A stretch of 64,000 nt of DNA, taken from NCBI GenBank assembly GCA_041665485.1, contig JBAYIT010000002.1:261867-325866 (forward strand), read 5' to 3'. Shown piece after piece: positions 2,475 to 55,188 of this stretch. Each line of letters begins with the position of its first letter. Within the stretch, counting starts at the first letter, position 1. The position numbers were made by a program, and so were the translations under genes. The notes beneath the pieces are model-generated. The model was given only the letters and a program-made list of their open reading frames with translations. It searched no databases and was not told the origin of the DNA. Source of the DNA: Candidatus Shapirobacteria bacterium (GTDB lineage: Bacteria; Patescibacteriota; Microgenomatia; UBA12405).

Positions 2475-5400
2475 TTAATTATAATTCCACCCCGACACTA
2501 TCCGTCCGATTATTGACGGCATACTAAACACAAAATCGGGTCGATATTTTATTGTCACTGCCGGGGCCTCGTTATTGTCTCCACTATCGCTAAACGATCG
2601 GTCGATTTTAATCTGGCTTGTCCCTCCGCTCGAATGTACTATCCCACTGATTGTCAAACCACTATCTAAATCTCCCCCAATATTAATATTTTTGTCGGCC
2701 ACAAAAACTCCTTCCGAATTTGTTACCTCCGATAAAAATGTCAAATCTCCACTACTTACCACCATTAAAAATTTATCTTGATTGACCGTATTATTTACAT
2801 CGATCGTCATGTTTCCGTCAACCAGAACTATTCCCGTTCCTCCAATTCCGGCTATCACCGAGCTCAAACTTGTTCCTGCCCCCACCACTTTAATTGAATT
2901 TAACTTTCCCACTAGACTTTGAGAGAAATAAGCATGATTATAAATACTCGATCCCATTAAGTTCCCACTTGGTCCTTTCCAAGACCAATTGTTGGGACTG
3001 CCAAAAAAAGCATTGTCGCCAGCCAACCCCTTGTTAATATCTATCGCTGTTACCAAGCCATTATCATTGGCCCCCGTCGCGCTTTCCACCGTCATTGCTG
3101 GCTTACAAGCGCTCGCCGATGCGCAAGTCATCGGAATTCGATTATTAATTGCACTACTCGCTCTAATTCCTCCTCCTACCACTTGATACCAAGCATCCTG
3201 GGTCAACACCACCGAAAAATCTACATCCAAATTTTGGCTAACCGCGTAAGCATCCAGGAAACCTGGAGTCAATACTAATCTAAAGTCCCCATTTACACAC
3301 ATCTGCGGTGACAAACGATTAACTCCGCTATAAATAAAAACTTCATATGTCCTGGCCCAATTAAGTTTTTCTCCGGCCGAGTCAGAGTAGTTTGGCGCCG
3401 ATACTGTCATTGTTTTATTACCATATCTTAGGCTGTAATCAATTGTCGACAAAGTATTAAATCCATTCCCATTGGCGCAGTTTGGTGTCCCAAAAGGAGC
3501 GTCCGACCCGTCATACAAACTCCCGGACACATTCACCTCGCAATTCCACACTTTAAAATCCCTATTAGTGTCCGTATTACTATTGGTTAGCCCCGATTTG
3601 TCAGTAATTGTCACCGATAGGGGATAGGTGCCAGTCCCATTATCGCTACCAGCAAAGTCCACTTCAGCCCGGGCAACTGCCCCGGCCAAAGTCATATTGT
3701 AATTTTTCCCGTTCCACCCCAACACCACCGAAGCAATATCCGCCAAACCATTACTGTCACTCACCCCTGCTTCAAATATCACTCTTCTCGGTATGTCTGA
3801 ATCCTGAAAAACTAACTCACAAATATGGTTTCGTCCGTCGCCAGTTGTTGCCACTGTTGCATCAGAATTCTTAATTGTAAACGACACCAGTTCTGGCGCA
3901 TTAGCCACCGGCGCCACCGGATGAGTTATCACAAAATAACGTGGCAAAGACCAAGCTGTTTCAACGCTACAGGTTTTGTTTTGTGCCGCTACTTGCCAGT
4001 AATAAACCACGTTATCAGAGAAAATCGAGCTGTTCACCACATACTGATTAGTCGCTATCCCCGCCAAAGTCATTTCTGTCACCATCACTCCCTCCCGATA
4101 AACAGCAAAGTAATAGCCATCAGTTAAAGCGTCAGTATTAGCGTTCCATCTAAAAGTTATTGTTGTTGCCGGATTAACAATTGTTTCCGGATCGCCCGAC
4201 GTTGTCCCCGAAGATACGGTTGTTGGTGTTGGCGGAATCCCTGCATCAGTGTTAGCGCAAAAATCACCACAGCCATTTTCCTGTCCGCAATAAGGAGCGT
4301 TACAAACACAGCTACAGCCACCGCAGTTATCACAACTAATTACCTTATTTGCCGTTGCCGACCAGCTTGAATCTTTACTGAAATTGTCCGTCGCTTTAAC
4401 CCGGCCGTAAACCGTTCCTTCACTCATCAAATTAGTGTAACTTTGCGAAGTTGCTGTTGTCACCGACTGCTGTAAACTTGTCCCCGAAAAATCGACAGTA
4501 TTGGCTGTATCTATCTGATAATTCTTCACCCCGGCGCAACCATTGTCAGACACTACCCCCCAGCTACCAGTTACATTAAATCTCCTCACCCCACCTACTA
4601 GTCCGTAATAAGAACAAGATAGTGCCAGCGACGGTGTCATTGGCCCCAGCGAGTCTGATTTCACCCACACTGGTGTAAACCCACTTCCAGTAGTTGATCC
4701 ATTTTTATATCTCGCCGTCACCGACACACAAGCATTTTGAGCCAAGCTCATCGGAACAGTGTAACTATCCACTTTTCCCGCCTTAATTACCGGGTCAGCT
4801 ATATCACTATTGGTAACATAAGTTTCTCTAATAGCGCACGCCCCAGCCACATCAACCCCCGTCCAATTCCAAGTCGGCGTCCCCGCCGACACGCAAGTAG
4901 CACTACTCCCGCCACAACTTGTTGTTCCGTTTGTACTTACCCCACTAATACTGCCAAACACTGGTGTCGAAGGTGGGGCACAATAGGTTGCCATCCCTCC
5001 GCAAATATCACTATCTACTGGCAAATTGGTGTTCCGATATTGAACACACATTTTCTTATCGCCATAAGTTGCTGAAACAGACTTGCTTTTTACTGCCACC
5101 ACTGGCTCCCAATCCTCCTGCCAGCGGGAATCATCAGCACTAATCCCAGCGCAACTTTCACTACTCCCCGGCTGCAAAAATCTCACCTGATTTACTCCCG
5201 TGTCATAGGCCAAGTTTATGCTAGCCGCCGGCGAACTCAAATAACAAGCACTATTTCTTGGGCTTGCGCTCCACTGGCTATAATTACAACCATTAAAATT
5301 GGCATCATTCCAGTCAACACACCTCGGCTTGGCGTAATACTGCGTCATCGCTCCGCATTTAGCCTTATCTTCGTTACTATTTTTGTATTCCACACACAAT

Positions 5401-8045
5401 TTCTTTTCCCCATACCCGCCAAGCGACAAGGTCCGGTTAACCGTTGCTGTCACCGGATTCCAAGTCGTCCAACCTGTCTGACTATCAGAAACCGAAGCGC
5501 AATCCCCACTGGCAATTTCTATAAATCGGTAGCTAGTCACTCCGGCGCTCCAACTTAAATTCACCGGCACGGTTGTCGAGGTAGTAAAACAAGCCGTATT
5601 TCTCGGGCTACTGTTCCACATCGCCCAACTACAATTATTAATTTTTATGTTTCCCCAGCTATCACACACCGGCAGGGCCACATAATACTCTGTCATCGCT
5701 CCGCATGGCAAGCTATTTCCATAGGTATTTTTGTATTGAGCACACAACTTTTTCTCCCCATATCCCGAACTCAAGACTTTATTTTTTGTTGCTGCCACCG
5801 TCTCCCAAGCCGACCACCGACTATCCTCCGAATCACCATCAACAATCACCGGAAAGCCGTCCACTGCACTACAGTTTTCGGCACCTCCTACTTCTGCAAA
5901 CCGAACATGAGTTGCCCCCAAATCCCAACTCAAATTTACCGGCACGGTGGTTGAAGCTGTCAAACAAGAAGCGTTCCTCGGACTAGAGTTATACATCGCA
6001 CTATCGCAGTTATTAATCTTCACACTGCTCCAACTATTACAACTCGGTGGACCTTCCACCAATTCATAACTCAACTCTGTTTCTACGTTGTATTGATTAG
6101 AAAAAACCACTTTGTGTGTCCCCAAGCTACTCGTCCCATTCCACATATTACTCGTCCCAGCCAAACAGGTGAAATTCCAGGTATAACTTCCACTTTTTGT
6201 TACCGTACAACCGTGTAAAAGTACATCTGCATTCTGTTGTATGGTTCCTCCGTCTTCTCTCCACACAATATTATTGTCATCATAATAGCTGGCATTACTT
6301 TCTCCACCCCGCGTCGTATCATGCAACCTCACTTTCGCCGGTACCCCATCTGCTCCGGCAACAGTCACCGTAAAACTCACACTCCCTCCCGGTAAAACTT
6401 TTGGTGTGTTCATCACTCCACTTGCCCTTCCTGGGTCAAAACAATTGGTTACAATATTCCCCACCTCCGTCCCTTTCACATAAGCCTGGGCGCAAACTTT
6501 CCCTCCACTGTATTTCCAATCTGCCCCCCAAGGCGCGCTTTGCGCCGGCTCACCATCTTCACCCGTACACATCACTCCTGAAACAGTACAACTTTCAGCA
6601 TATCCGCGGGGAGTGTACAAACTACTTGTAGAAGGGCCAATCTTAATCTGTGTTTCCAAATTACAACAACCGCTTGGATCAGCATCTCTCGCCGCCTCTG
6701 GGTTAGGTGAATAGCCAAATTTTGATGGAATATCCGCCACCCTAACATCAAACCTGTCAGAGTTACTTCTATTTGTCCTAATATTAGGGTTAATAACAAT
6801 TGTTGATCTGCTCGGGTAATCAACTGGGTTGCATGGGGCAAACGTTGGTAACTTTCCACAACAATACTGCGTTCCATTTCTTTCGCAATAATTATCACCA
6901 TCACTACTTTCACTACAATTTTGTCCGTCCAAACCTTTTCCCGAAGGGCACCATTCATGTTGTCCGGGAGCGTCTCCACACTGGCTATCCAAAAAACAAT
7001 CAGTGTTTCTGGCCGGGGCACAAGCCGGCGGGCCACAATCAACAGTACACGCATTATAACGACAACATTCTCCAGATGGACACTGAGAATCAGACGTACA
7101 TCCCGGTGGCACCGGTGTATTCGTCGCTATCGGCGCCACTCCTCCGCATGTCCCTCCACATCCATCACTCCCTCCATCCGCCACCCCAACGCAGTCAGGA
7201 GTACAAGTCCAACTACAATCTCTAATCGGGCAAGACGCCGAAGAACAGTGAGACATTTGGCAATCCTCCCGATTTGTAAATCCGCAAGATATCGCCCCCG
7301 ACCCTGCCCCCGCTACACAGTCTCGGGTACAAGTACCCAAGTCACCTAACCCACATGGTGCAGAAACATTGTCACAAGTCCCACCACCAGGAGTACAACT
7401 ATAAACATAACTTCCACACTCATATGTTCCCCAGCAAGTTCCTGCAGCCATCGCTGGTCTAACCAGTTTCCAGCCAACCTTCGACTTACGAACCAGGCGA
7501 ATAAATTGGCTCTCCCTGGAATATTTACCGGCAACCTGGTTACATCGGGTGTCATCGTCAAATCTGTCGTTATATCTCGACTGAAAACAAATCATTTTTA
7601 ACACGCCAAATGTCGTTCTCCGCCAAATGTACGGTATATTGTTTCGATCCGTCAACTCCACCAATGTCTCCGGTGAATAATAAATTCTGGCCTGATTAGT
7701 CAAAATTCTATTTTGATATCTAAAGCCAAAGGCTTGAAATGGCGGTTTATTAACATTCGAAAACAATTTATAATCATTTTCGACCTTACCACTCAGCACT
7801 ATCTCTAGTCGCAATGGCCAAACAATCTTTGGCCTACTAATTTGCTCTCGCACCCCACCACCCCAATAATTAATCTCTCCCAAAAAAGCATTAAATTGTC
7901 TCCAATCAATTATTTGTAATTCATATTCCTGTACTTCCGAAACCAGCTTCACTCGTGTTAACGTCACATAGCCAATAACCACCAACAAAAATACTAACAA
8001 CAAAACCAATAACTTCTTCACACACTCATAATAACAAAAAATCAA
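2475..8045 (-). CDS. Giant (1856 aa) cysteine-rich repeat-containing cell-surface protein, N-terminal TM anchor; putative T4P-associated adhesin
   Basis: Single uninterrupted ORF. TTG start directly after the TAG stop of the upstream lipoprotein gene. Residues 11-30 form a hydrophobic helix. Residues ~195-410 carry about 40 Cys. Three tandem ~115-125 aa repeats (motifs NNCSWAMWNSSPRN and GYGEKKLCxxYKNT). Gly/Ser/Thr-rich C-terminal beta-like region. Confidence 0.7.
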   Translation of the reverse strand: MIFCYYECVKKLLVLLLVFLLVVIGYVTLTRVKLVSEVQEYELQIIDWRQFNAFLGEINYWGGGVREQISRPKIVWPLRLEIVLSGKVENDYKLFSNVNKPPFQAFGFRYQNRILTNQARIYYSPETLVELTDRNNIPYIWRRTTFGVLKMICFQSRYNDRFDDDTRCNQVAGKYSRESQFIRLVRKSKVGWKLVRPAMAAGTCWGTYECGSYVYSCTPGGGTCDNVSAPCGLGDLGTCTRDCVAGAGSGAISCGFTNREDCQMSHCSSASCPIRDCSWTCTPDCVGVADGGSDGCGGTCGGVAPIATNTPVPPGCTSDSQCPSGECCRYNACTVDCGPPACAPARNTDCFLDSQCGDAPGQHEWCPSGKGLDGQNCSESSDGDNYCERNGTQYCCGKLPTFAPCNPVDYPSRSTIVINPNIRTNRSNSDRFDVRVADIPSKFGYSPNPEAARDADPSGCCNLETQIKIGPSTSSLYTPRGYAESCTVSGVMCTGEDGEPAQSAPWGADWKYSGGKVCAQAYVKGTEVGNIVTNCFDPGRASGVMNTPKVLPGGSVSFTVTVAGADGVPAKVRLHDTTRGGESNASYYDDNNIVWREDGGTIQQNADVLLHGCTVTKSGSYTWNFTCLAGTSNMWNGTSSLGTHKVVFSNQYNVETELSYELVEGPPSCNSWSSVKINNCDSAMYNSSPRNASCLTASTTVPVNLSWDLGATHVRFAEVGGAENCSAVDGFPVIVDGDSEDSRWSAWETVAATKNKVLSSGYGEKKLCAQYKNTYGNSLPCGAMTEYYVALPVCDSWGNIKINNCSWAMWNSSPRNTACFTTSTTVPVNLSWSAGVTSYRFIEIASGDCASVSDSQTGWTTWNPVTATVNRTLSLGGYGEKKLCVEYKNSNEDKAKCGAMTQYYAKPRCVDWNDANFNGCNYSQWSASPRNSACYLSSPAASINLAYDTGVNQVRFLQPGSSESCAGISADDSRWQEDWEPVVAVKSKSVSATYGDKKMCVQYRNTNLPVDSDICGGMATYCAPPSTPVFGSISGVSTNGTTSCGGSSATCVSAGTPTWNWTGVDVAGACAIRETYVTNSDIADPVIKAGKVDSYTVPMSLAQNACVSVTARYKNGSTTGSGFTPVWVKSDSLGPMTPSLALSCSYYGLVGGVRRFNVTGSWGVVSDNGCAGVKNYQIDTANTVDFSGTSLQQSVTTATSQSYTNLMSEGTVYGRVKATDNFSKDSSWSATANKVISCDNCGGCSCVCNAPYCGQENGCGDFCANTDAGIPPTPTTVSSGTTSGDPETIVNPATTITFRWNANTDALTDGYYFAVYREGVMVTEMTLAGIATNQYVVNSSIFSDNVVYYWQVAAQNKTCSVETAWSLPRYFVITHPVAPVANAPELVSFTIKNSDATVATTGDGRNHICELVFQDSDIPRRVIFEAGVSDSNGLADIASVVLGWNGKNYNMTLAGAVARAEVDFAGSDNGTGTYPLSVTITDKSGLTNSNTDTNRDFKVWNCEVNVSGSLYDGSDAPFGTPNCANGNGFNTLSTIDYSLRYGNKTMTVSAPNYSDSAGEKLNWARTYEVFIYSGVNRLSPQMCVNGDFRLVLTPGFLDAYAVSQNLDVDFSVVLTQDAWYQVVGGGIRASSAINNRIPMTCASASACKPAMTVESATGANDNGLVTAIDINKGLAGDNAFFGSPNNWSWKGPSGNLMGSSIYNHAYFSQSLVGKLNSIKVVGAGTSLSSVIAGIGGTGIVLVDGNMTIDVNNTVNQDKFLMVVSSGDLTFLSEVTNSEGVFVADKNINIGGDLDSGLTISGIVHSSGGTSQIKIDRSFSDSGDNNEAPAVTIKYRPDFVFSMPSIIGRIVSGWNYN
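4982..6041 (-). repeat. Three tandem coding repeats (~345-375 nt each) inside the giant protein gene (aa ~669-1022)
   Basis: The protein segments CNSWSSVKINNCDSAMYNSSPRNASC..., CDSWGNIKINNCSWAMWNSSPRNTACF... and CVDWNDANFNGCNYSQWSASPRNSACY... each end with a GYGEKKLC/YGDKKMC...YKNT/YRNT motif. Confidence 0.85.
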
Positions 8046-13191: not shown

Positions 13192-14406
13192 ATGTCCCAC
13201 AAACGCAATATCTTAATGATCTGCCCCTATCTACCCCGCCTCTCCCAATCCGGTGGCCAAAGAAGTTCCTATTATTCAATCAAATATCTGGCTCCAAAAA
13301 ATAAAATCACTCTCATTTGTTTTAGTCGCGACGAAGACGGCCTGAAAGACATAAAACAGTTTTGTCACAAGGTTATCGTCGTCAAACGGGGAAAAACCTG
13401 GGACCTAAAAAAAGTTCTCATGGCCGCTTTTAGTCCTTACCCCTTCCTGGTTGTCAACTACATTAGCCAGGAACTAAAAACAACTATTCAAAACGAGCTC
13501 GATCACCACCATTTCGACCTCATTCACTGTGACTGTTTCTACCCTATGCCCAATATTCCCAAAACCGAGGTTCCCATCGTTTTAGTCGATCTTACCATTG
13601 AATATTCTGTTTATCAGCACTTTGTTGAAAGCCTTAAAGGTATTAAAAAACTCCTCACTCCCATTCTTCAGCTTGATGTTCTTAAATTAAAATATTGGGA
13701 AACCCATTATTGGAAAAATTCCCACACCGTTGTTGCCTTTGGTCAGGACGATCAAAAAATTATTTCTCAAGTCACCGGCCGAAAAGACATTCAATATTTC
13801 CAAAACGGTGTCGACCAGAAATATATTGATGCTTCCATTAAAACCCCAAAAACTAAAAAGCCATCCATTCTTTTTGGTGTTTCCAACATGAAGTGGATGC
13901 AAAACAGCGAATCAGTTGACCTAATTCTTAAAAAATACTGGAGTAAAATCAAAAAACAAATTCCTGCCTGCCAGCTCTATATTGTTGGCCGGTTTGCTCC
14001 GGAATTCTTTGGTAAATACCAGTCAAAAGATATCATAGTCACCGAAGCTGATATTGATGGAGAAGCCCACGATCCTCAGTTTTATTACCAGCAAAGTTGG
14101 CTTTTGCTCGCCCCCATGGCCAGTGGCGGCGGCACCCGCAATAAATTCCTCGAAGCCATGGCCTTTAGTCTCCCCATCATTACCACCAAAGACGGCATGG
14201 GTGGCATAAACATTGAAAATTATCGTCACGCCATTGTTTGTCCGGAAAAGGACATTGTCAAAAATGTCGTTAAACTGGTTAAAAATAAAAAGTATCGTGG
14301 GCAAATAGGGGATGATGCCAAAAAGTTAATCGCCGATAAATACAGCTTTGAAAAATGTGTTGAAGGCCTAAACCAAATCTACGACTCCATCACCACCAAT
14401 ATCTAA
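13192..14406 (+). CDS. Glycosyltransferase family 4 (GT-B, group 1)
   Basis: 404 aa. C-terminal GGTRNKFLEAMAFSLPIITTKDGMGG matches the GT1/GT4 EX7E-type motif region. Confidence 0.7.
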   Translation: MSHKRNILMICPYLPRLSQSGGQRSSYYSIKYLAPKNKITLICFSRDEDGLKDIKQFCHKVIVVKRGKTWDLKKVLMAAFSPYPFLVVNYISQELKTTIQNELDHHHFDLIHCDCFYPMPNIPKTEVPIVLVDLTIEYSVYQHFVESLKGIKKLLTPILQLDVLKLKYWETHYWKNSHTVVAFGQDDQKIISQVTGRKDIQYFQNGVDQKYIDASIKTPKTKKPSILFGVSNMKWMQNSESVDLILKKYWSKIKKQIPACQLYIVGRFAPEFFGKYQSKDIIVTEADIDGEAHDPQFYYQQSWLLLAPMASGGGTRNKFLEAMAFSLPIITTKDGMGGINIENYRHAIVCPEKDIVKNVVKLVKNKKYRGQIGDDAKKLIADKYSFEKCVEGLNQIYDSITTNI

Positions 14407-51077: not shown

Positions 51078-51809
51078 ATGACCAGATTTAAAATTAAAAA
51101 TTTAAAATTTAAAATTTTGTTTTTACTGTTTACGGTTAACGGTTTACGGTTTACGACGTTAATAATTGCTCAATCTCCGATTCCTACCTCCACAACTGAA
51201 GGTAAGGTGGACGAAATTCAGCAGATTAGAGAGGCAGTTCAACAAAAAGTCAAAGAAAAAATCTCTGACATTGTTAAGCCAACCACTATTCGTAAAGCTA
51301 TTATCGGTACTGTTTCTGCCATCACTAGCAACAATCAAATCACCATAACTTATCAAAACAAAGACATAACCGCCAACATTGATCCAGAAGTTGTTTACAT
51401 TGACGCCAAAAAAAATAAAAGCAAAATTACTAACCTTAAAACCGGCCAAGAAGTTCTAATTTTAGGTAACTACCAAACTGAAACCGATCTCTTCACTGTT
51501 AAGCGGATTATTGCCATCAAACTCGCCACCGACATTCTTCCCGCTCCGATTACCGTCATCGGTCAAATTGTTGATACTTCCAAAACTTCAAATGTTTTTT
51601 CTCTAATTCCCACCAAAAACAAAAACCAACAACTTCAAATATTTTATACCGATAAAACAAAAATTACCCTACTCTCAGGAGAAACAGTCAAAAGTGAAGA
51701 CATCAAAAATGGCCAGAAAGTCATAGTTGTTCTTATTCCCAAAGACAACAAAGCCAACAACTTCACCGCCATCCGACTAATGCTCCAAAATCCCCAAATA
51801 ACCCCTTAA
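51078..51809 (+). CDS. Hypothetical secreted protein (5' end uncertain)
   Basis: The first ~30 codons are encoded by AAAATTT/TTTACGG tandem repeats. Confidence 0.4.
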   Translation: MTRFKIKNLKFKILFLLFTVNGLRFTTLIIAQSPIPTSTTEGKVDEIQQIREAVQQKVKEKISDIVKPTTIRKAIIGTVSAITSNNQITITYQNKDITANIDPEVVYIDAKKNKSKITNLKTGQEVLILGNYQTETDLFTVKRIIAIKLATDILPAPITVIGQIVDTSKTSNVFSLIPTKNKNQQLQIFYTDKTKITLLSGETVKSEDIKNGQKVIVVLIPKDNKANNFTAIRLMLQNPQITP

Positions 51810-51884
51810 TTTCTTGTTTTAAAATTTAGAATTAAAAATTTAAAATTTCAAAAAATAGATTTTGGTTGTTTTTTTATTTTTTGA

Positions 51885-51893
51885 TGTTATAAT
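51885..51893 (+). promoter_or_regulatory. Extended -10 TGTTATAAT 7 nt upstream of the His-leader ATG
   Basis: Read directly. Confidence 0.55.
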
Positions 51894-51900
51894 AACCCCA

Positions 51901-51939
51901 ATGACCAAAGCATTCGCTGCTCATCATCATCGCTCCTAA
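51901..51939 (+). CDS. Putative His leader peptide MTKAFAAHHHRS (12 codons, three consecutive CAT His codons)
   Basis: ATG ACC AAA GCA TTC GCT GCT CAT CAT CAT CGC TCC TAA. Leaderless-type promoter upstream and an intrinsic terminator 28 nt downstream. tRNA-His and hisS follow. Confidence 0.5.
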   Translation: MTKAFAAHHHRS

Positions 51940-51967
51940 CTGGCGGTGCTGATTTGGTCAAAAACAA

Positions 51968-51990
51968 GCCCCGCCGAAGCGGGGTTTTTT
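51968..51990 (+). terminator. Intrinsic terminator GCCCCGC-CGAA-GCGGGG-TTTTTT (candidate attenuator)
   Basis: A 7-bp GC stem with a T6 run. The upstream GGCGGTGC (51942-51949) can pair with the left arm as an alternative antiterminator. Confidence 0.65.
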
Positions 51991-52080
51991 AGTTTCTTTA
52001 AATCAACATCCTTTTTTAATTGGAAATTGAAAATTGGATATTGAAAATTTTAAAAAATTGTATTGTACAATTTTTTACAT

Positions 52081-52158
52081 GGTGGTATTAGCTCAATTGG
52101 TTAGAGCGCCGCTCTGTGAAAGCGGAGGTTGCCGGTTCAAATCCGGTATATCACCCCA
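52081..52158 (+). tRNA. tRNA-His (anticodon GTG) with encoded G-1 and CCA
   Basis: Folded by hand. G-1 pairs with C73, the His identity feature. Acceptor GTGGTAT/ATATCAC. D-arm GCTC/GAGC. Anticodon loop CTGTGAA. T-arm GCCGG-TTCAAAT-CCGGT. 3' CCA present. Confidence 0.85.
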
Positions 52159-52310
52159 AATTCTTAATTTAGAAATTTAAGAATTTAAAAAATTACTTTA
52201 TGAACTTTATAACTTTTAACTTTAAAACTAGTTTTCATCATCCCCATACCGTGGCCCTTACCCCGCGGGGTGGTAACGCGACCTAAAACTTTTTTATTTA
52301 ATTATCTAAA

Positions 52311-52334
52311 GCCCCGTAAACCGGGGCTTTTTTT
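52311..52334. terminator. Intrinsic terminator GCCCCG-TAAAC-CGGGGC-TTTTTTT after tRNA-His
   Basis: Read directly. Confidence 0.65.
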
Positions 52335-52353
52335 ATGCTCCAAATTATTACTT

Positions 52354-53973
52354 ATGAAAACAAAAAATATTATGTCACCAGATAGACTTAAACCAATAGA
52401 AAAAAAGGGGTCTGATTTACTCTCAACCTTATTAGGTCGTCAACTCTATCCAAAAGACGGGGTTACTTCAACTGTGGGTGAAGCTGTTAGGGCGGATTCA
52501 TTATTAATGGCTCAACAAATCGTGACTGAATTAAACGAAAATATATCATTAAACCCAAGCGATGTTACTGCCAAGGTTCTCCCTAGAGCCGAAAGTTGGA
52601 ACTATCAAGCTCAAGCCAGTTCATACAACGGTTCTACCTCTTTAGCCTCACTTTTAGAAACTTCCCAACAAGAGGAGGCTGTCGTCAAAGAAATAATCGA
52701 CAATCAAGGTCCAAACGATCCCGTCAACGCAAATCTTATCGCCAGGCAGTGGTGGGCCAATACTATTGGTTACGAAACTAGAGCCGCCGTCAAAAAGCAA
52801 ACAATGGCCACTACCCGCAAGTTAGCTTACCAACAAGAAATCGCCGGATATAAAATTAAACAGCTTCAACGTACACCAGACACAGAGTACAGCAGTGCCT
52901 ACAATCGCCTAGTCTATCAACGAGCTGATCAATTGAGCACCGCCGAGCTAATATCCATCAATCGGCAGATTGACCTTGAAATAGCCAATCAAGTCAGTGA
53001 TGCCGAAATTATTGACATGTTATCAACCAGAGAAGCAACAAGACAGCAACAATGGCTATCCCAACTTCTAAATGCCGGCCTACGAGAGTCACTTTCTCCT
53101 GACACTGCAGTTAAATTCGCTACCATGTACTATGAAATTAAGCGCCGACAAACCGATGAAATTTGGGGTAGCAAACAGCTTCAGACTATTATTGTTAATG
53201 GGCTAAGAGGTGGAAACATCAACTTTATAACTATGCTTTGTACCATCAATGAATTTGACTACCAGGGTGGTTACACTCTCAACCCAGACCTCGACACCTA
53301 CAAAACCAACCCCAAGGTCGAACCGGTTCCATTGATAATTGACGAAATAGCAGACTTCATATTTTTATTTAAATACTATGGCGTTAGTTGCCAATTAACT
53401 ATGTACGTCGCCGACACCGACTACACCGAAATTGGTGCCAATGGTCCAGTCACCACACCAAATTTAACAAACCTTAAACTATATTTAGAAAATCTCCAAA
53501 GATATGTGGTCAAATTTGAAGGATGTGTTTCAGTCGCCCCAATTTCCTCACTTACCAATAATAATCCAACTTACCTTGCCACTAAGCAACGCGTCCTTGG
53601 GTGGGTTACCGCCCGAAGGGATGTTGGTTTTAATAGTAAGTGGGGCAATAAATGGGAAGAAGATGTTGAAAGAAGAAATGAAACTTTTGGCAAGAAAAAG
53701 TTATGCTCTCCCAACCGAGTCAGACAAGAATCATTAAGGGTGGCTCAAAACATCTGGGCTGTTAATGCTGCCCAAGGAGCCACTTTTAGTAACCTGGGTC
53801 CCAACACTGTTCTCATCAGTAGTGAAAGGCGCGACCGAGACATGAATTATGTCGTTGACCAACAAGCCACCAAAAACTTCCCTCCAGTAATTTATGTCCT
53901 CAAAGCCGCCGAGGATTGGAACCGCAAAGTTGTCAATAAAGCCATATTTCAAGCTGACGATGTTACAATCTAA
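52354..53973 (+). CDS. Hypothetical protein (~540 aa), no recognisable domain
   Basis: ORF track 52270-53973. The start is moved to an ATG downstream of the terminator (MKTKNIMSPDRL...). Confidence 0.45.
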   Translation: MKTKNIMSPDRLKPIEKKGSDLLSTLLGRQLYPKDGVTSTVGEAVRADSLLMAQQIVTELNENISLNPSDVTAKVLPRAESWNYQAQASSYNGSTSLASLLETSQQEEAVVKEIIDNQGPNDPVNANLIARQWWANTIGYETRAAVKKQTMATTRKLAYQQEIAGYKIKQLQRTPDTEYSSAYNRLVYQRADQLSTAELISINRQIDLEIANQVSDAEIIDMLSTREATRQQQWLSQLLNAGLRESLSPDTAVKFATMYYEIKRRQTDEIWGSKQLQTIIVNGLRGGNINFITMLCTINEFDYQGGYTLNPDLDTYKTNPKVEPVPLIIDEIADFIFLFKYYGVSCQLTMYVADTDYTEIGANGPVTTPNLTNLKLYLENLQRYVVKFEGCVSVAPISSLTNNNPTYLATKQRVLGWVTARRDVGFNSKWGNKWEEDVERRNETFGKKKLCSPNRVRQESLRVAQNIWAVNAAQGATFSNLGPNTVLISSERRDRDMNYVVDQQATKNFPPVIYVLKAAEDWNRKVVNKAIFQADDVTI

Positions 53974-53979
53974 CTAACC

Positions 53980-55188
53980 ATGAACCAAAATAAATCACAG
54001 CCATTACGGGGTTTTCGAGATTTTTTACCTATAGAAGCCAGCAAAAGACAATGGCTCAGAAATAAACTATCGCAAATTTTTGAGAAATGGGGTTACGAAC
54101 CTCTTGAAACTCCCACTCTTGAACCATTGGAAATTTTTGAAAATCAAATTGGTGAAGGTGAAAACATGTTCTTTAAATTTGAAGACAACGGTGGCAGAAA
54201 AGTAGCCTTAAGATACGACCAATCAGTGCCAACTGCCCGAGTTGTTGCCAGATTTGCCAATGAAATCGCCTTTCCCTTCAAACGTTACCAAATACAGTCG
54301 GCCTTCCGTGCCGAAAAACCTCAAAAGGGAAGGTATCGCGAATTTGTTCAATGCGACGCCGACATTTTTGGAGTTAAAGATATCAGCGCTGACGCCGAAG
54401 TTATCGCCTTAGCCATATCCATCTACAAAGAACTTGGCTTTCCCCAAGCCAAAGTATTTGTCAGCGACAGAGATTTACTAAAAAATCTACCTTATGAAGC
54501 CATAATCGCCATAGATAAACTGGAAAAAATCGGCGAAAAATCAGTAATTGAAGAGATGGTTAAAAAAGGAATTGACAAAAATGAAGCAGTAAAGTATCTA
54601 AACCAAGCAACCAACCTAAAACCAAACAATAATATCGAATATATCCTCAAATATCTAAAAGACAGTAATATCGACGAAAACTGGTTTTCTTTCGAACCAA
54701 CCCTGGCCAGATCATTCTCCTATTCAAACGGACCAATTTGGGAAGTAAAAATACCAGGCTTTGTCAGCGGGTCAGTTCTCGGCGGTGAAAGATTTGACAG
54801 TGTTGCCAAAAAGATTTCCGGGCTAGACATCGCCGCCACTGGTTTTGGCCTTGGGTTTGACCGTACCATCGAAGCAATGGAACAGTTTAGCCTTCTTCCA
54901 AACTCCAAAACCAACACCAAAGTCCTAGTCACCGTCTTTTCTCCCGACACTCAAACCGAAAGCATTAAACTCGCCAACGAGCTTCGCCAAAGCAATATCA
55001 ACACTCTCCTCTACCCTACTCCAGAGAAACTTAGCAAACAATTTAAATATGCTTCTGACAAAAATATCCCCTACGTCGCCGTTCTCGGCCCCGACGAGTT
55101 AAAAAACAACACCATTACTCTCAAAAATATGATCACTGGTGAACAAAAACAGCTCAATTTATCAAGTCTCTTGGTTCAACTCTCTTAA
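53980..55188 (+). CDS. hisS: Histidyl-tRNA synthetase
   Basis: Class II motifs including GFRDFLP, plus a C-terminal anticodon-binding domain. Confidence 0.8.
   Translation: MNQNKSQPLRGFRDFLPIEASKRQWLRNKLSQIFEKWGYEPLETPTLEPLEIFENQIGEGENMFFKFEDNGGRKVALRYDQSVPTARVVARFANEIAFPFKRYQIQSAFRAEKPQKGRYREFVQCDADIFGVKDISADAEVIALAISIYKELGFPQAKVFVSDRDLLKNLPYEAIIAIDKLEKIGEKSVIEEMVKKGIDKNEAVKYLNQATNLKPNNNIEYILKYLKDSNIDENWFSFEPTLARSFSYSNGPIWEVKIPGFVSGSVLGGERFDSVAKKISGLDIAATGFGLGFDRTIEAMEQFSLLPNSKTNTKVLVTVFSPDTQTESIKLANELRQSNINTLLYPTPEKLSKQFKYASDKNIPYVAVLGPDELKNNTITLKNMITGEQKQLNLSSLLVQLS

Follow-up and report, generated by a model that had tools for sequence, protein, structure and literature searches.

How is the transcription of a tRNA-His gene, and of the histidyl-tRNA synthetase gene hisS further downstream, controlled in a bacterium that belongs to the Candidate Phyla Radiation (CPR)? 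The question is raised by a 64 kb stretch of a Candidatus Shapirobacteria metagenome-assembled genome (Microgenomates, within CPR), which we refer to as the window. To our knowledge, CPR bacteria (Patescibacteria) combine very small genomes with few recognisable regulators, and none of them serves as a cultured model of gene regulation. In the window, an element of ~90 nt precedes tRNA-His. It consists of an extended -10 promoter element, an ATG 7 nt on, a 12-codon open reading frame (ORF) with three consecutive His codons (HHH) and an intrinsic terminator, T1. An earlier reading of the DNA from its letters alone (the sequence-only reading) had described this order, continuing through tRNA-His and a second terminator to hisS, and we found each of these parts where it had placed them. 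On the basis of computed sequence features, conservation and alternative pairings, we propose that this element, leader 1, is very likely a His-specific ribosome-mediated (leader-peptide) transcription attenuator.

The HHH run by itself is not rare, as CAYCAYCAY occurs three times in short ORFs of the window. The view of the sequence-only reading that such a run lies beyond chance thus fails for the run alone. It holds for the conjunction of features and for its recurrence in relatives: a -10 hexamer followed after 6-8 nt by an ATG, 5-35 codons and a strong terminator is found once in the 64 kb, both strands included.

Relatives were drawn from two sources. Loci L001-L160 come from hisS-anchored scans of GTDB genomes and JGI metagenomes, and L161-L166 are contigs that encode homologs of the 243-aa protein upstream of the window leader. 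A leaderless HHH mini-ORF with a terminator lies 5' of tRNA-His in six more loci (L161, L163, L164, L165, L166 and L001), representing approximately four lineages beyond the window. The sequence-only reading would have been contradicted by a lack of such conservation. The flanking proteins of L161 and L163-L166 are 71% down to 40% identical to those of the window, so the ORFs of the relatives are not assembly duplicates; L001 was located via hisS, and its HisRS is 60% identical. All seven tRNA-His-linked leaders share the order [-35/-10]-7 nt-ATG-(7-11 codons)-HHH-(2-4 codons)-stop-region 2-T1-tRNA-His, where region 2 is the switching segment described below and the stop codon lies directly 5' of it. 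Related His leaders precede hisS operons without a tRNA in L010, L081, L005, L087/L097, L007/L098 and L084. Altogether, HHH or HHHH occurs in seven loci besides the window, and HHxH-type runs occur in five more.

The pattern of divergence is that of a coding sequence. In L010 and the leaders linked to tRNA-His, substitutions in the His codons are limited to exchanges of CAU and CAC, with neighbouring codons diverging freely, and ORF length varies from 12 to 18 codons through whole-codon differences only; the L166 ORF, for example, is one codon longer than that of L165. Apart from HHH, the leader peptide sequence is not conserved. An RNA-only element would need no in-frame ATG at the transcript start in every lineage, and for this reason we read the ORF as an ORF. 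The locus therefore holds a short ORF that is enriched in regulatory codons and conserved in relatives.

The position of the promoter points to a leaderless transcript. The -10 hexamer ends 6-8 nt 5' of the ATG in all 13 leaders of the window and its relatives, and all but one of the nine HHH-type leaders show a distance of exactly 7 nt. A TGn extension is present in 9/13 leaders and a TTGACA or TTGACT -35 element in 7/13; the promoter of leader 1 fits the sigma-70 consensus. A Shine-Dalgarno sequence was found in none of the 13, so they would be leaderless mRNAs. From the -10 spacing, transcription of leader 1 would start at the ATG or 1 nt before it, which gives the ORF a credible, predicted translation start.

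The same spacing is seen elsewhere. Of the 63 large ORFs in the window, 16 show it, compared with 4.2% of all ATGs, an enrichment of approximately six-fold; examples with a TATAAT-like hexamer 6-8 nt before the ATG are at 13192, 31312, 32228 and, on the minus strand, 60509 and 63047. The hisS gene of L165 also has leaderless-type spacing. Because of these 16 ORFs, leaderless mRNAs seem to be common in this Shapirobacteria genome.

We next describe the RNA of leader 1. Folding of 101 nt, starting at 51895, gives a Y-shaped domain and the terminator (-36.2 kcal/mol, z = -3.65). The leader has two stems in addition to T1. P0 joins the start-codon region to the segment behind region 2, and P1 pairs AUCA.CAUCGCU of region 1, which overlaps the His codons, with GGCGGUG.UGAU (51942-53) of region 2. 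The pairing of 51902-12 with 51947-60, proposed by the sequence-only reading, is present; its duplex energy of -12.7 kcal/mol is matched by 4/1000 shuffles. For the P1 duplex of the window (-13.3 kcal/mol) the count is 18/1000, and across eight leaders the P0 and P1 duplexes are each matched by 0.3-5% of shuffles. A P0-like stem of unrelated sequence occurs in L165, L166, L164, L001, L081, L007 and L084. P0 has no place in the textbook scheme of attenuation. In the folding model, it would close the 5'-terminal AUG after completion of the leader and would also commit transcripts without a loaded ribosome to termination. T1 is a 9-bp GC-rich hairpin, AAGCCCCGC/CGAA/GCGGGGTTT, at 51966-51987 with an energy of -14.6 kcal/mol, and its T-run extends up to 51990. 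In the window and in all relatives, an intrinsic terminator thus lies between the leader ORF and the regulated gene.

Region 2 has a competing partner. The sequence-only reading had paired GGCGGTGC with GCCCCGCC, one mismatch included, as antiterminator; folding replaces this register with a better one, in which UGGCGG (51941-46) pairs with CCGCCG (51971-76) and GCU (51948-50) with AGC (51967-69). To follow the switch, we folded the nascent transcript as far as the terminator loop, a stage at which the 3' arm has yet to be made, keeping the RNA free from A-site+13 onward. When the A-site lies on a His codon of the window leader, region 2 captures 7/9 nucleotides of the terminator arm (-15.6 kcal/mol). 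If the A-site instead sits on the stop codon, the ribosome covers region 2 and pairing is confined to 2/9 arm nucleotides. Without a ribosome, P0 and P1 form and 0/9 are paired.

Superimposing these three states on the relatives gave a similar picture. With the ribosome on the His codons, arm capture across leaders is 7/9, 7/8, 7/8, 8/8, 8/9, 8/10, 6/6 and 9/9; with the ribosome at the stop codon it is 0-3 in most leaders, and without a ribosome it is 0 in most. The three-state behaviour of the window is also seen in L163, L166, L164, L001, L007 and L084. Stalling likewise leads to capture of the arm in L161, L010, L081, L005 and L087, and the arm is free at the stop codon with the exception of L081, where 6/9 nucleotides are still paired. 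In L161, L010, L005 and L087, the arm is captured without a ribosome as well. The antiterminator is matched by 0-18 of 500 dinucleotide shuffles of the spacer in each of the 13 leaders (one in L161, none in L166). An equilibrium calculation with a local ribosome mask was rejected as physically unrealistic, since it formed P0 around the ribosome and gave the terminator in nearly all states.

Comparative data support the same pairings. MAFFT/RNAalifold on the seven tRNA-His-linked leaders recovered P1 and T1, missed P0 and misaligned the registers, and a re-alignment guided by a covariance model was used instead. In this alignment, 74.6% of the cells pair, compared with 33-54% for slid partners, and compensatory changes occur in seven pairs, compared with 1-3. 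The antiterminator helix is 87.5% paired in the seven sequences (26-66% when slid). Sub-families have unrelated region sequences and keep the same 1:2 / 2:3 / 3:4 scheme. For example, the four regions of L081 are ACCAGCCA / UUGGCUGGUU / AACCAGCCAA / GGCUGGUU, and in L005 UUUGGGAGG pairs against CCUCCCAAA. A search of 45 loci with covariance model R1 returned no new members beyond the seeds; its weak matches, L087 and L081, were already known from the ORF scan.

What lies immediately behind the leader is tRNA-His. The tRNA gene starts 3, 3 and 9 nt after the U-run of T1 in L161, L163 and L165, respectively, and in these loci only read-through could produce it because a gap of 3-9 nt leaves no room for a promoter. 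In the window the gap is ~90 nt and contains a possible TACAAT at 52066-71, which has no counterpart in L161, L163 and L165 and is seen in the window genome only. We consider it fairly likely that leader 1 gates tRNA-His transcription in the window, and the likelihood is higher for L161, L163 and L165. L164 carries two tRNA-His genes 2.3 kb apart (4516-4591 and 6853-6929). Of these, the first is preceded by a TATAAT of its own and by no leader, and the second lies behind a His leader and a terminator.

Based on these features, we propose the following mechanism. Transcription would start at the ATG of the leaderless 12-codon ORF, and the nascent RNA would take up a ribosome at its 5'-terminal AUG. 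With ample His-tRNA(His), this ribosome would proceed to the UAA at 51937 and cover region 2, so that T1 forms. If no ribosome loads, P0 and P1 would fold and T1 would form again. When His-tRNA(His) is scarce, the ribosome would stall on CAU CAU CAU and cover region 1, leaving region 2 free. Free region 2 would then pair with the T1 5' arm and loop before the 3' arm exists, and RNA polymerase would enter tRNA-His. A second His leader (HHPH, 52200-52286, followed by T2) would probably gate a 533-aa protein gene and hisS. In such a feedback loop, the level of charged tRNA-His would set the transcription of tRNA-His and, via two terminators in series, that of the synthetase.

Several points weigh against this proposal. 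Transcription start, ORF translation, coupling, termination and the response to histidine are all inferred from the sequence, and we know of no study of transcription-translation coupling in CPR bacteria. Leader 1 has three His codons only. The window antiterminator beats shuffles only modestly (18/500), and in the tRNA-His-linked sub-family the sequence of the antiterminator helix is conserved, with no double compensatory changes. In many of the related genomes scanned, no such leader was found near hisS. Given the possible TACAAT, part of the tRNA-His expression in the window may bypass the leader. Finally, in full-length equilibrium folding of the window sequence the terminator wins in every ribosome state (P 0.75-0.96). 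The ribosome-dependent refolding expected by the sequence-only reading is therefore borne out on the nascent transcript and fails at full-length equilibrium. Because the terminator wins in all states, the switch of the window can only be kinetic, and it is in this kinetic sense only that its pairings are mutually exclusive with stalling favouring the antiterminator; kinetic trapping is an assumption of ours. Classical attenuators normally depend on the order of folding during transcription. For L161, L010 and the hisS-proximal family, folding at equilibrium itself changes with ribosome position.

Could the unit instead be an independent small gene that yields a separate small RNA, or a peptide of 12 aa with a function of its own, T1 being a full stop and tRNA-His transcribed separately? 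Its own promoter, strong terminator and compact Y-shaped fold would suit such a gene, as would the possible TACAAT 10 nt before the window tRNA, and examples of terminated attenuator RNAs with trans activity exist in other bacteria (PMC6614838). Any such activity of the terminated leader RNA would nevertheless come on top of attenuation. The peptide is not conserved outside HHH, the unit always precedes tRNA-His or hisS operons, and the short distances in L161, L163 and L165 make a separate tRNA promoter impossible there, so we regard an independent gene as quite unlikely. Another explanation invokes an RNA sensor that works without translation, in which CAU/CAC is read by the anticodon of tRNA-His as in a T-box, or another ligand is bound, and the ORF is incidental. 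Such a sensor would need none of the coding features, namely the absence of internal stops, the whole-codon length changes and the stop codon beside region 2; the ATG is moreover fixed 6-8 nt from the -10 hexamer and always in frame with the His run. In its favour, CAY codes for His and the U/C variation seen would be compatible with a GUG anticodon, P0, P1 and the terminator form a conserved structure, and the corresponding genomic position of some relatives is occupied by a quite different structured RNA whose loop reads GUCACGA. The leader nevertheless matches neither the T-box nor any other Rfam family and lacks a UGGG bulge for the CCCA end of tRNA, and we find the sensor improbable.

Chance is the remaining explanation: T1 might simply terminate the 243-aa gene upstream, with the HHH mini-ORF there by coincidence. 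No other terminator lies between that gene, which ends at 51809, and T1, and the three CAYCAYCAY runs in short window ORFs fit this idea as well. T1 may indeed stop upstream transcripts too, yet the ORF would stay unexplained. The conjunction of features is unique in the window, the pairings are backed by shuffle tests, and the ORF, His codons and promoter spacing are kept in approximately five lineages plus related families. Coincidence is thus hardly credible, and leader-peptide attenuation is the reading we carry forward. The features of the window and of the related loci are collected in Table 1.

Table 1. Leader, terminator and gene features of the window, followed by leader peptides and structured RNAs of related loci (coordinates of related loci refer to the locus named).
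Feature	Coordinates	Strand	Basis or remark
Extended -10 promoter element, TGTTATAAT	51885-51893	+	sequence
Leader ORF 1, MTKAFAAHHHRS then stop, 12 codons	51901-51939	+	His codons 51922-51930; window sequence ATG ACC AAA GCA TTC GCT GCT CAT CAT CAT CGC TCC TAA
P0 5' arm, UGACCAA	51902-51908	+	takes in two start-codon bases; partner 51954-51960
Region 1, AUCA.CAUCGCU	51923-51934	+	overlaps His codons; partner region 2
Region 2, UGGCGGUGCUGAU	51941-51953	+	pairs with region 1, or with terminator 5' arm and loop 51967-51976
P0 3' arm, UUGGUCA	51954-51960	+	folding, duplex shuffles
Intrinsic terminator T1 (regions 3 and 4), AAGCCCCGC CGAA GCGGGGUUU UUU	51966-51990	+	
Possible weak secondary promoter, -10 TACAAT	52066-52071	+	uncertain; 10 nt 5' of tRNA-His
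tRNA-His, anticodon GTG	52081-52158	+	encoded G-1 (52081), C73, CCA; tRNA body starts at 52082
Probable leader ORF 2, MNFITFNFKTSFHHPHTVALTPRGGNAT then stop	52200-52286	+	His codons 52236-41 and 52245-47
Intrinsic terminator T2, AAAGCCCCG UAAAC CGGGGCUUU UUUU	52308-52334	+	
533-aa protein gene, function unassigned	52372-53973	+	probable start 52372; between T2 and hisS
hisS, histidyl-tRNA synthetase	53980-55188	+	PF13393 at 4e-37, PF03129
L161 leader peptide before tRNA-His			MTKAIVAHHHRF
L163 leader peptide before tRNA-His			MTIVLVVHHHRF
L165 leader peptide before tRNA-His			MNTALMNTTHHHTSK
L166 leader peptide before tRNA-His			MNIASMNSNTHHHTSK
L164 leader peptide before tRNA-His			MLNQVCFSNHHHTNF
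L001 leader peptide before tRNA-His			MNKSARVGQFAHHHQLKP
L010 leader peptide before hisS operon			MLIKDVQNQLRHHHHAI
L081 leader peptide before hisS operon			MNKSFSKLVHHTSH
L005 leader peptide before hisS operon	5742-5850		MNKSFWSHHTYFNHSFGRV; hisS-proximal family
L087 (= L097) leader peptide before hisS operon	4834-4943		MSKFVFAIHHAYWNHSFGGV; hisS-proximal family
L007 (= L098) leader peptide before hisS operon	5823-5934		MSKFVCAYHHAHWNPIIGRV; hisS-proximal family
L084 leader peptide before hisS operon	4366-4476		MSKLNGAIHHTHLNPNSERA; hisS-proximal family
Structured RNA, L082	2745-2925		
Structured RNA, L003	4608-4812		
Structured RNA, L085/L139	4390-4570		
Structured RNA, L092-L094	2512-2690		
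Structured RNA, L004	2901-3060		

Between tRNA-His and hisS, the sequence-only reading had noted the second terminator, T2, which is present, and had missed the probable His leader in front of it. ORF 2 contains …FHHPHTV…, and its orthologs read HHRH in L161, HHAH in L163, HHTH in L166 and HRH in L164; the middle codon varies at several positions, and the flanking CAU codons are kept. A conserved hairpin lies 3' of the His codons, CCGUGG (52249-54) / CCGCGG (52263-68), and extends by pairing the His codons with GGUG. In folding, the 3' strand of this hairpin, CGGGGU, is able to pair with GCCCCG of the T2 arm. This leader is less certain than leader 1 because its antiterminator in the window, matched by 292/500 shuffles, is no better than chance. 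No recognisable promoter or Shine-Dalgarno sequence was found before the ATG of ORF 2, which also counts against it. On balance we lean slightly towards ORF 2 and T2 forming a second His attenuator in series. The arrangement behind the tRNA varies among relatives: L001 is without a second leader and has a gene with a Shine-Dalgarno sequence directly after the tRNA, and in L165 the tRNA is followed just by a terminator and by hisS, which looks leaderless there. The HHPH ORF of L085/L139 was tried as a homolog of leader 2 and rejected, as it overlaps the TTGACA-17-TACCAT promoter of another RNA element.

The genes behind the leaders share a histidine theme. hisS is present in every locus. Histidine-racemase-like genes occur in L163 (5039-5800) and L010 (1816-2502), with matches to NF033599 at 2.7e-18 and NF052224 at 7.5e-13, both under the curated cut-offs, and are distantly similar to CntK / Fusobacterium HisR; that of L010 is in frame with hisS. 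A HisG domain gene lies behind the leader in L164 (7082-7774) and a GNAT-like gene in L081. Proteins of unassigned function are encoded behind the leaders as well, the 533-aa protein of the window among them. This gene content suggests a small histidine-salvage regulon behind His leaders. In the window, the gene between T2 and hisS was given as 540 aa by the sequence-only reading, and its probable start yields 533 aa. The protein has no sequence match in Pfam, NCBIfam or PDB and is not obviously a membrane protein; an ortholog occupies the same position in L161 and L162 (539 aa). Its stop ends 6 nt before the hisS start, which makes co-transcription likely. Taken together, we think it rather probable that tRNA-His in these Microgenomates is made only by read-through of the leaderless attenuator, and that a serial second attenuator gates hisS and salvage genes (racemase, HisG), in a two-step graded response.

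We also observed His leaders of other types near hisS. A hisS-proximal family of leaderless ORFs with 19-20 codons, MSK/MNK…HHx(H/Y)..N(H/P)…, lies directly 5' of hisS in other Microgenomates. Its ORF extends through region 2, and some His positions are not kept within the family. In L013, a record labelled 'uncultured Cytophagia' whose HisRS is only 39% identical, a His-rich mini-ORF, MILNFPHFHLHHYRIILDYIFR, is found at 515-644 with a GGAG Shine-Dalgarno sequence and a strong terminator ~60 nt before hisS. This mini-ORF could represent an independent His leader of hisS.

In other relatives, a conserved structured RNA of ~180 nt behind a TTGACA-17-TACACT/TACCAT promoter occupies the place where the window has the leader peptide. 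It lies 5' of tRNA-His in L082, L092 and L004 and 5' of hisS operons in L003 and L085. The RNA contains a covarying hairpin whose 7-nt loop GUCACGA is invariant and includes CAC, a His codon; another hairpin, with a CAAAAU loop; and more covarying stems. Its terminator is variable, and the ends of three copies, GAUGGGACCGCGGG, resemble the T-box UGGN-ACCGCG. RNAalifold on five sequences gave 34 pairs, 13 of them with compensatory changes, and the RNA has no Rfam match. It may be an undescribed sensor of tRNA-His or histidine, and sister lineages appear to have replaced the leader attenuator with it at the same position.

How does leader 1 relate to known systems? At the Rfam gathering threshold, the window and 12 relatives gave only tRNAs. 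At E <= 10 over 51700-52500, no family besides tRNA was matched, and neither His_leader (RF00514) nor T-box (RF00230) was among the matches. Weak matches to Leu, Phe, Thr and Trp leaders were driven by the terminator, lay far below threshold and were set aside. In full-text literature searches we found neither leader peptides nor T-boxes in CPR/Patescibacteria, in agreement with the sequence-only reading that attenuation of this kind had not been described for CPR-type genomes; a tRNA gene under leader-peptide attenuation was not found either.

The attenuator, if correct, has wider meaning. A conserved attenuator would imply that CPR bacteria use coupled transcription-translation sensing, via leaderless mRNAs, and that they regulate the supply of translation (tRNA, synthetase) rather than amino-acid synthesis, which they lack. 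With a tRNA behind a leader-peptide terminator, transcription would respond to the charging of its own product. The arrangement of a -10 hexamer, 7 nt, an ATG, a short ORF with a codon run and a terminator may also serve as a template for finding unannotated intergenic leaders in CPR genomes.

Classical attenuators read through when the ribosome stalls for want of charged tRNA. Like hisL (RF00514) and the trp, phe, leu and thr attenuators of Proteobacteria, leader 1 combines an ORF rich in cognate codons, 1:2 / 2:3 / 3:4 hairpins and a terminator. It differs from hisL in several respects: hisL has seven His codons and the window leader three, and the latter is leaderless, has no Shine-Dalgarno sequence and carries the extra P0 stem that would sequester the start codon. 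In addition, its targets are a tRNA and an aminoacyl-tRNA synthetase (aaRS) instead of a biosynthetic operon, and its host belongs to CPR/Microgenomates.

Leader-peptide control of an aaRS has itself been encountered before. The pheST leader (pheM) of E. coli is experimentally characterised. The sequence-only reading had called such control unusual, and this needs revising in view of pheST, of the classical attenuators predicted for trpS and leuS in Streptomyces (PMC1262725) and of the His leader peptide predicted for Bacillus, where it lies upstream of hisZ and of a paralog of hisS (PMC2965389), the last being His-specific like leader 1. His leaders with 3-5 His codons have further been predicted in his operons of Firmicutes (PMC9413887). 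The aaRS leaders named here precede protein genes only, whereas in the window the cognate tRNA comes first and hisS lies behind a second terminator. No sequence relationship of the window leader to them was detected. With the exception of pheST, these cases are computational predictions, as is the window leader.

Two further systems share single features with leader 1. Leaderless polycysteine short ORFs of mycobacteria sense cysteine and act on translation (bioRxiv 10.1101/834739). They too sit at a leaderless 5' end and involve stalling on a codon run; the window element, in contrast to this 'ribulon' with its unmasking of a ribosome-binding site, ends in an intrinsic terminator, and its first target is a tRNA, which has no ribosome-binding site. 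The hisS T-boxes of Firmicutes likewise use tRNA-His charging as signal, hisS as target and a terminator/antiterminator as output. T-boxes, however, bind tRNA directly without a ribosome, and the window element, at its small size, has no Stem I, specifier loop, T-box sequence, UGGN-bulge antiterminator or UGGG. Our findings thus support the idea of a classical attenuator found in a novel context, with a leaderless mRNA and a CPR host, placed before a tRNA gene that it would gate, and in tandem with a probable second attenuator.

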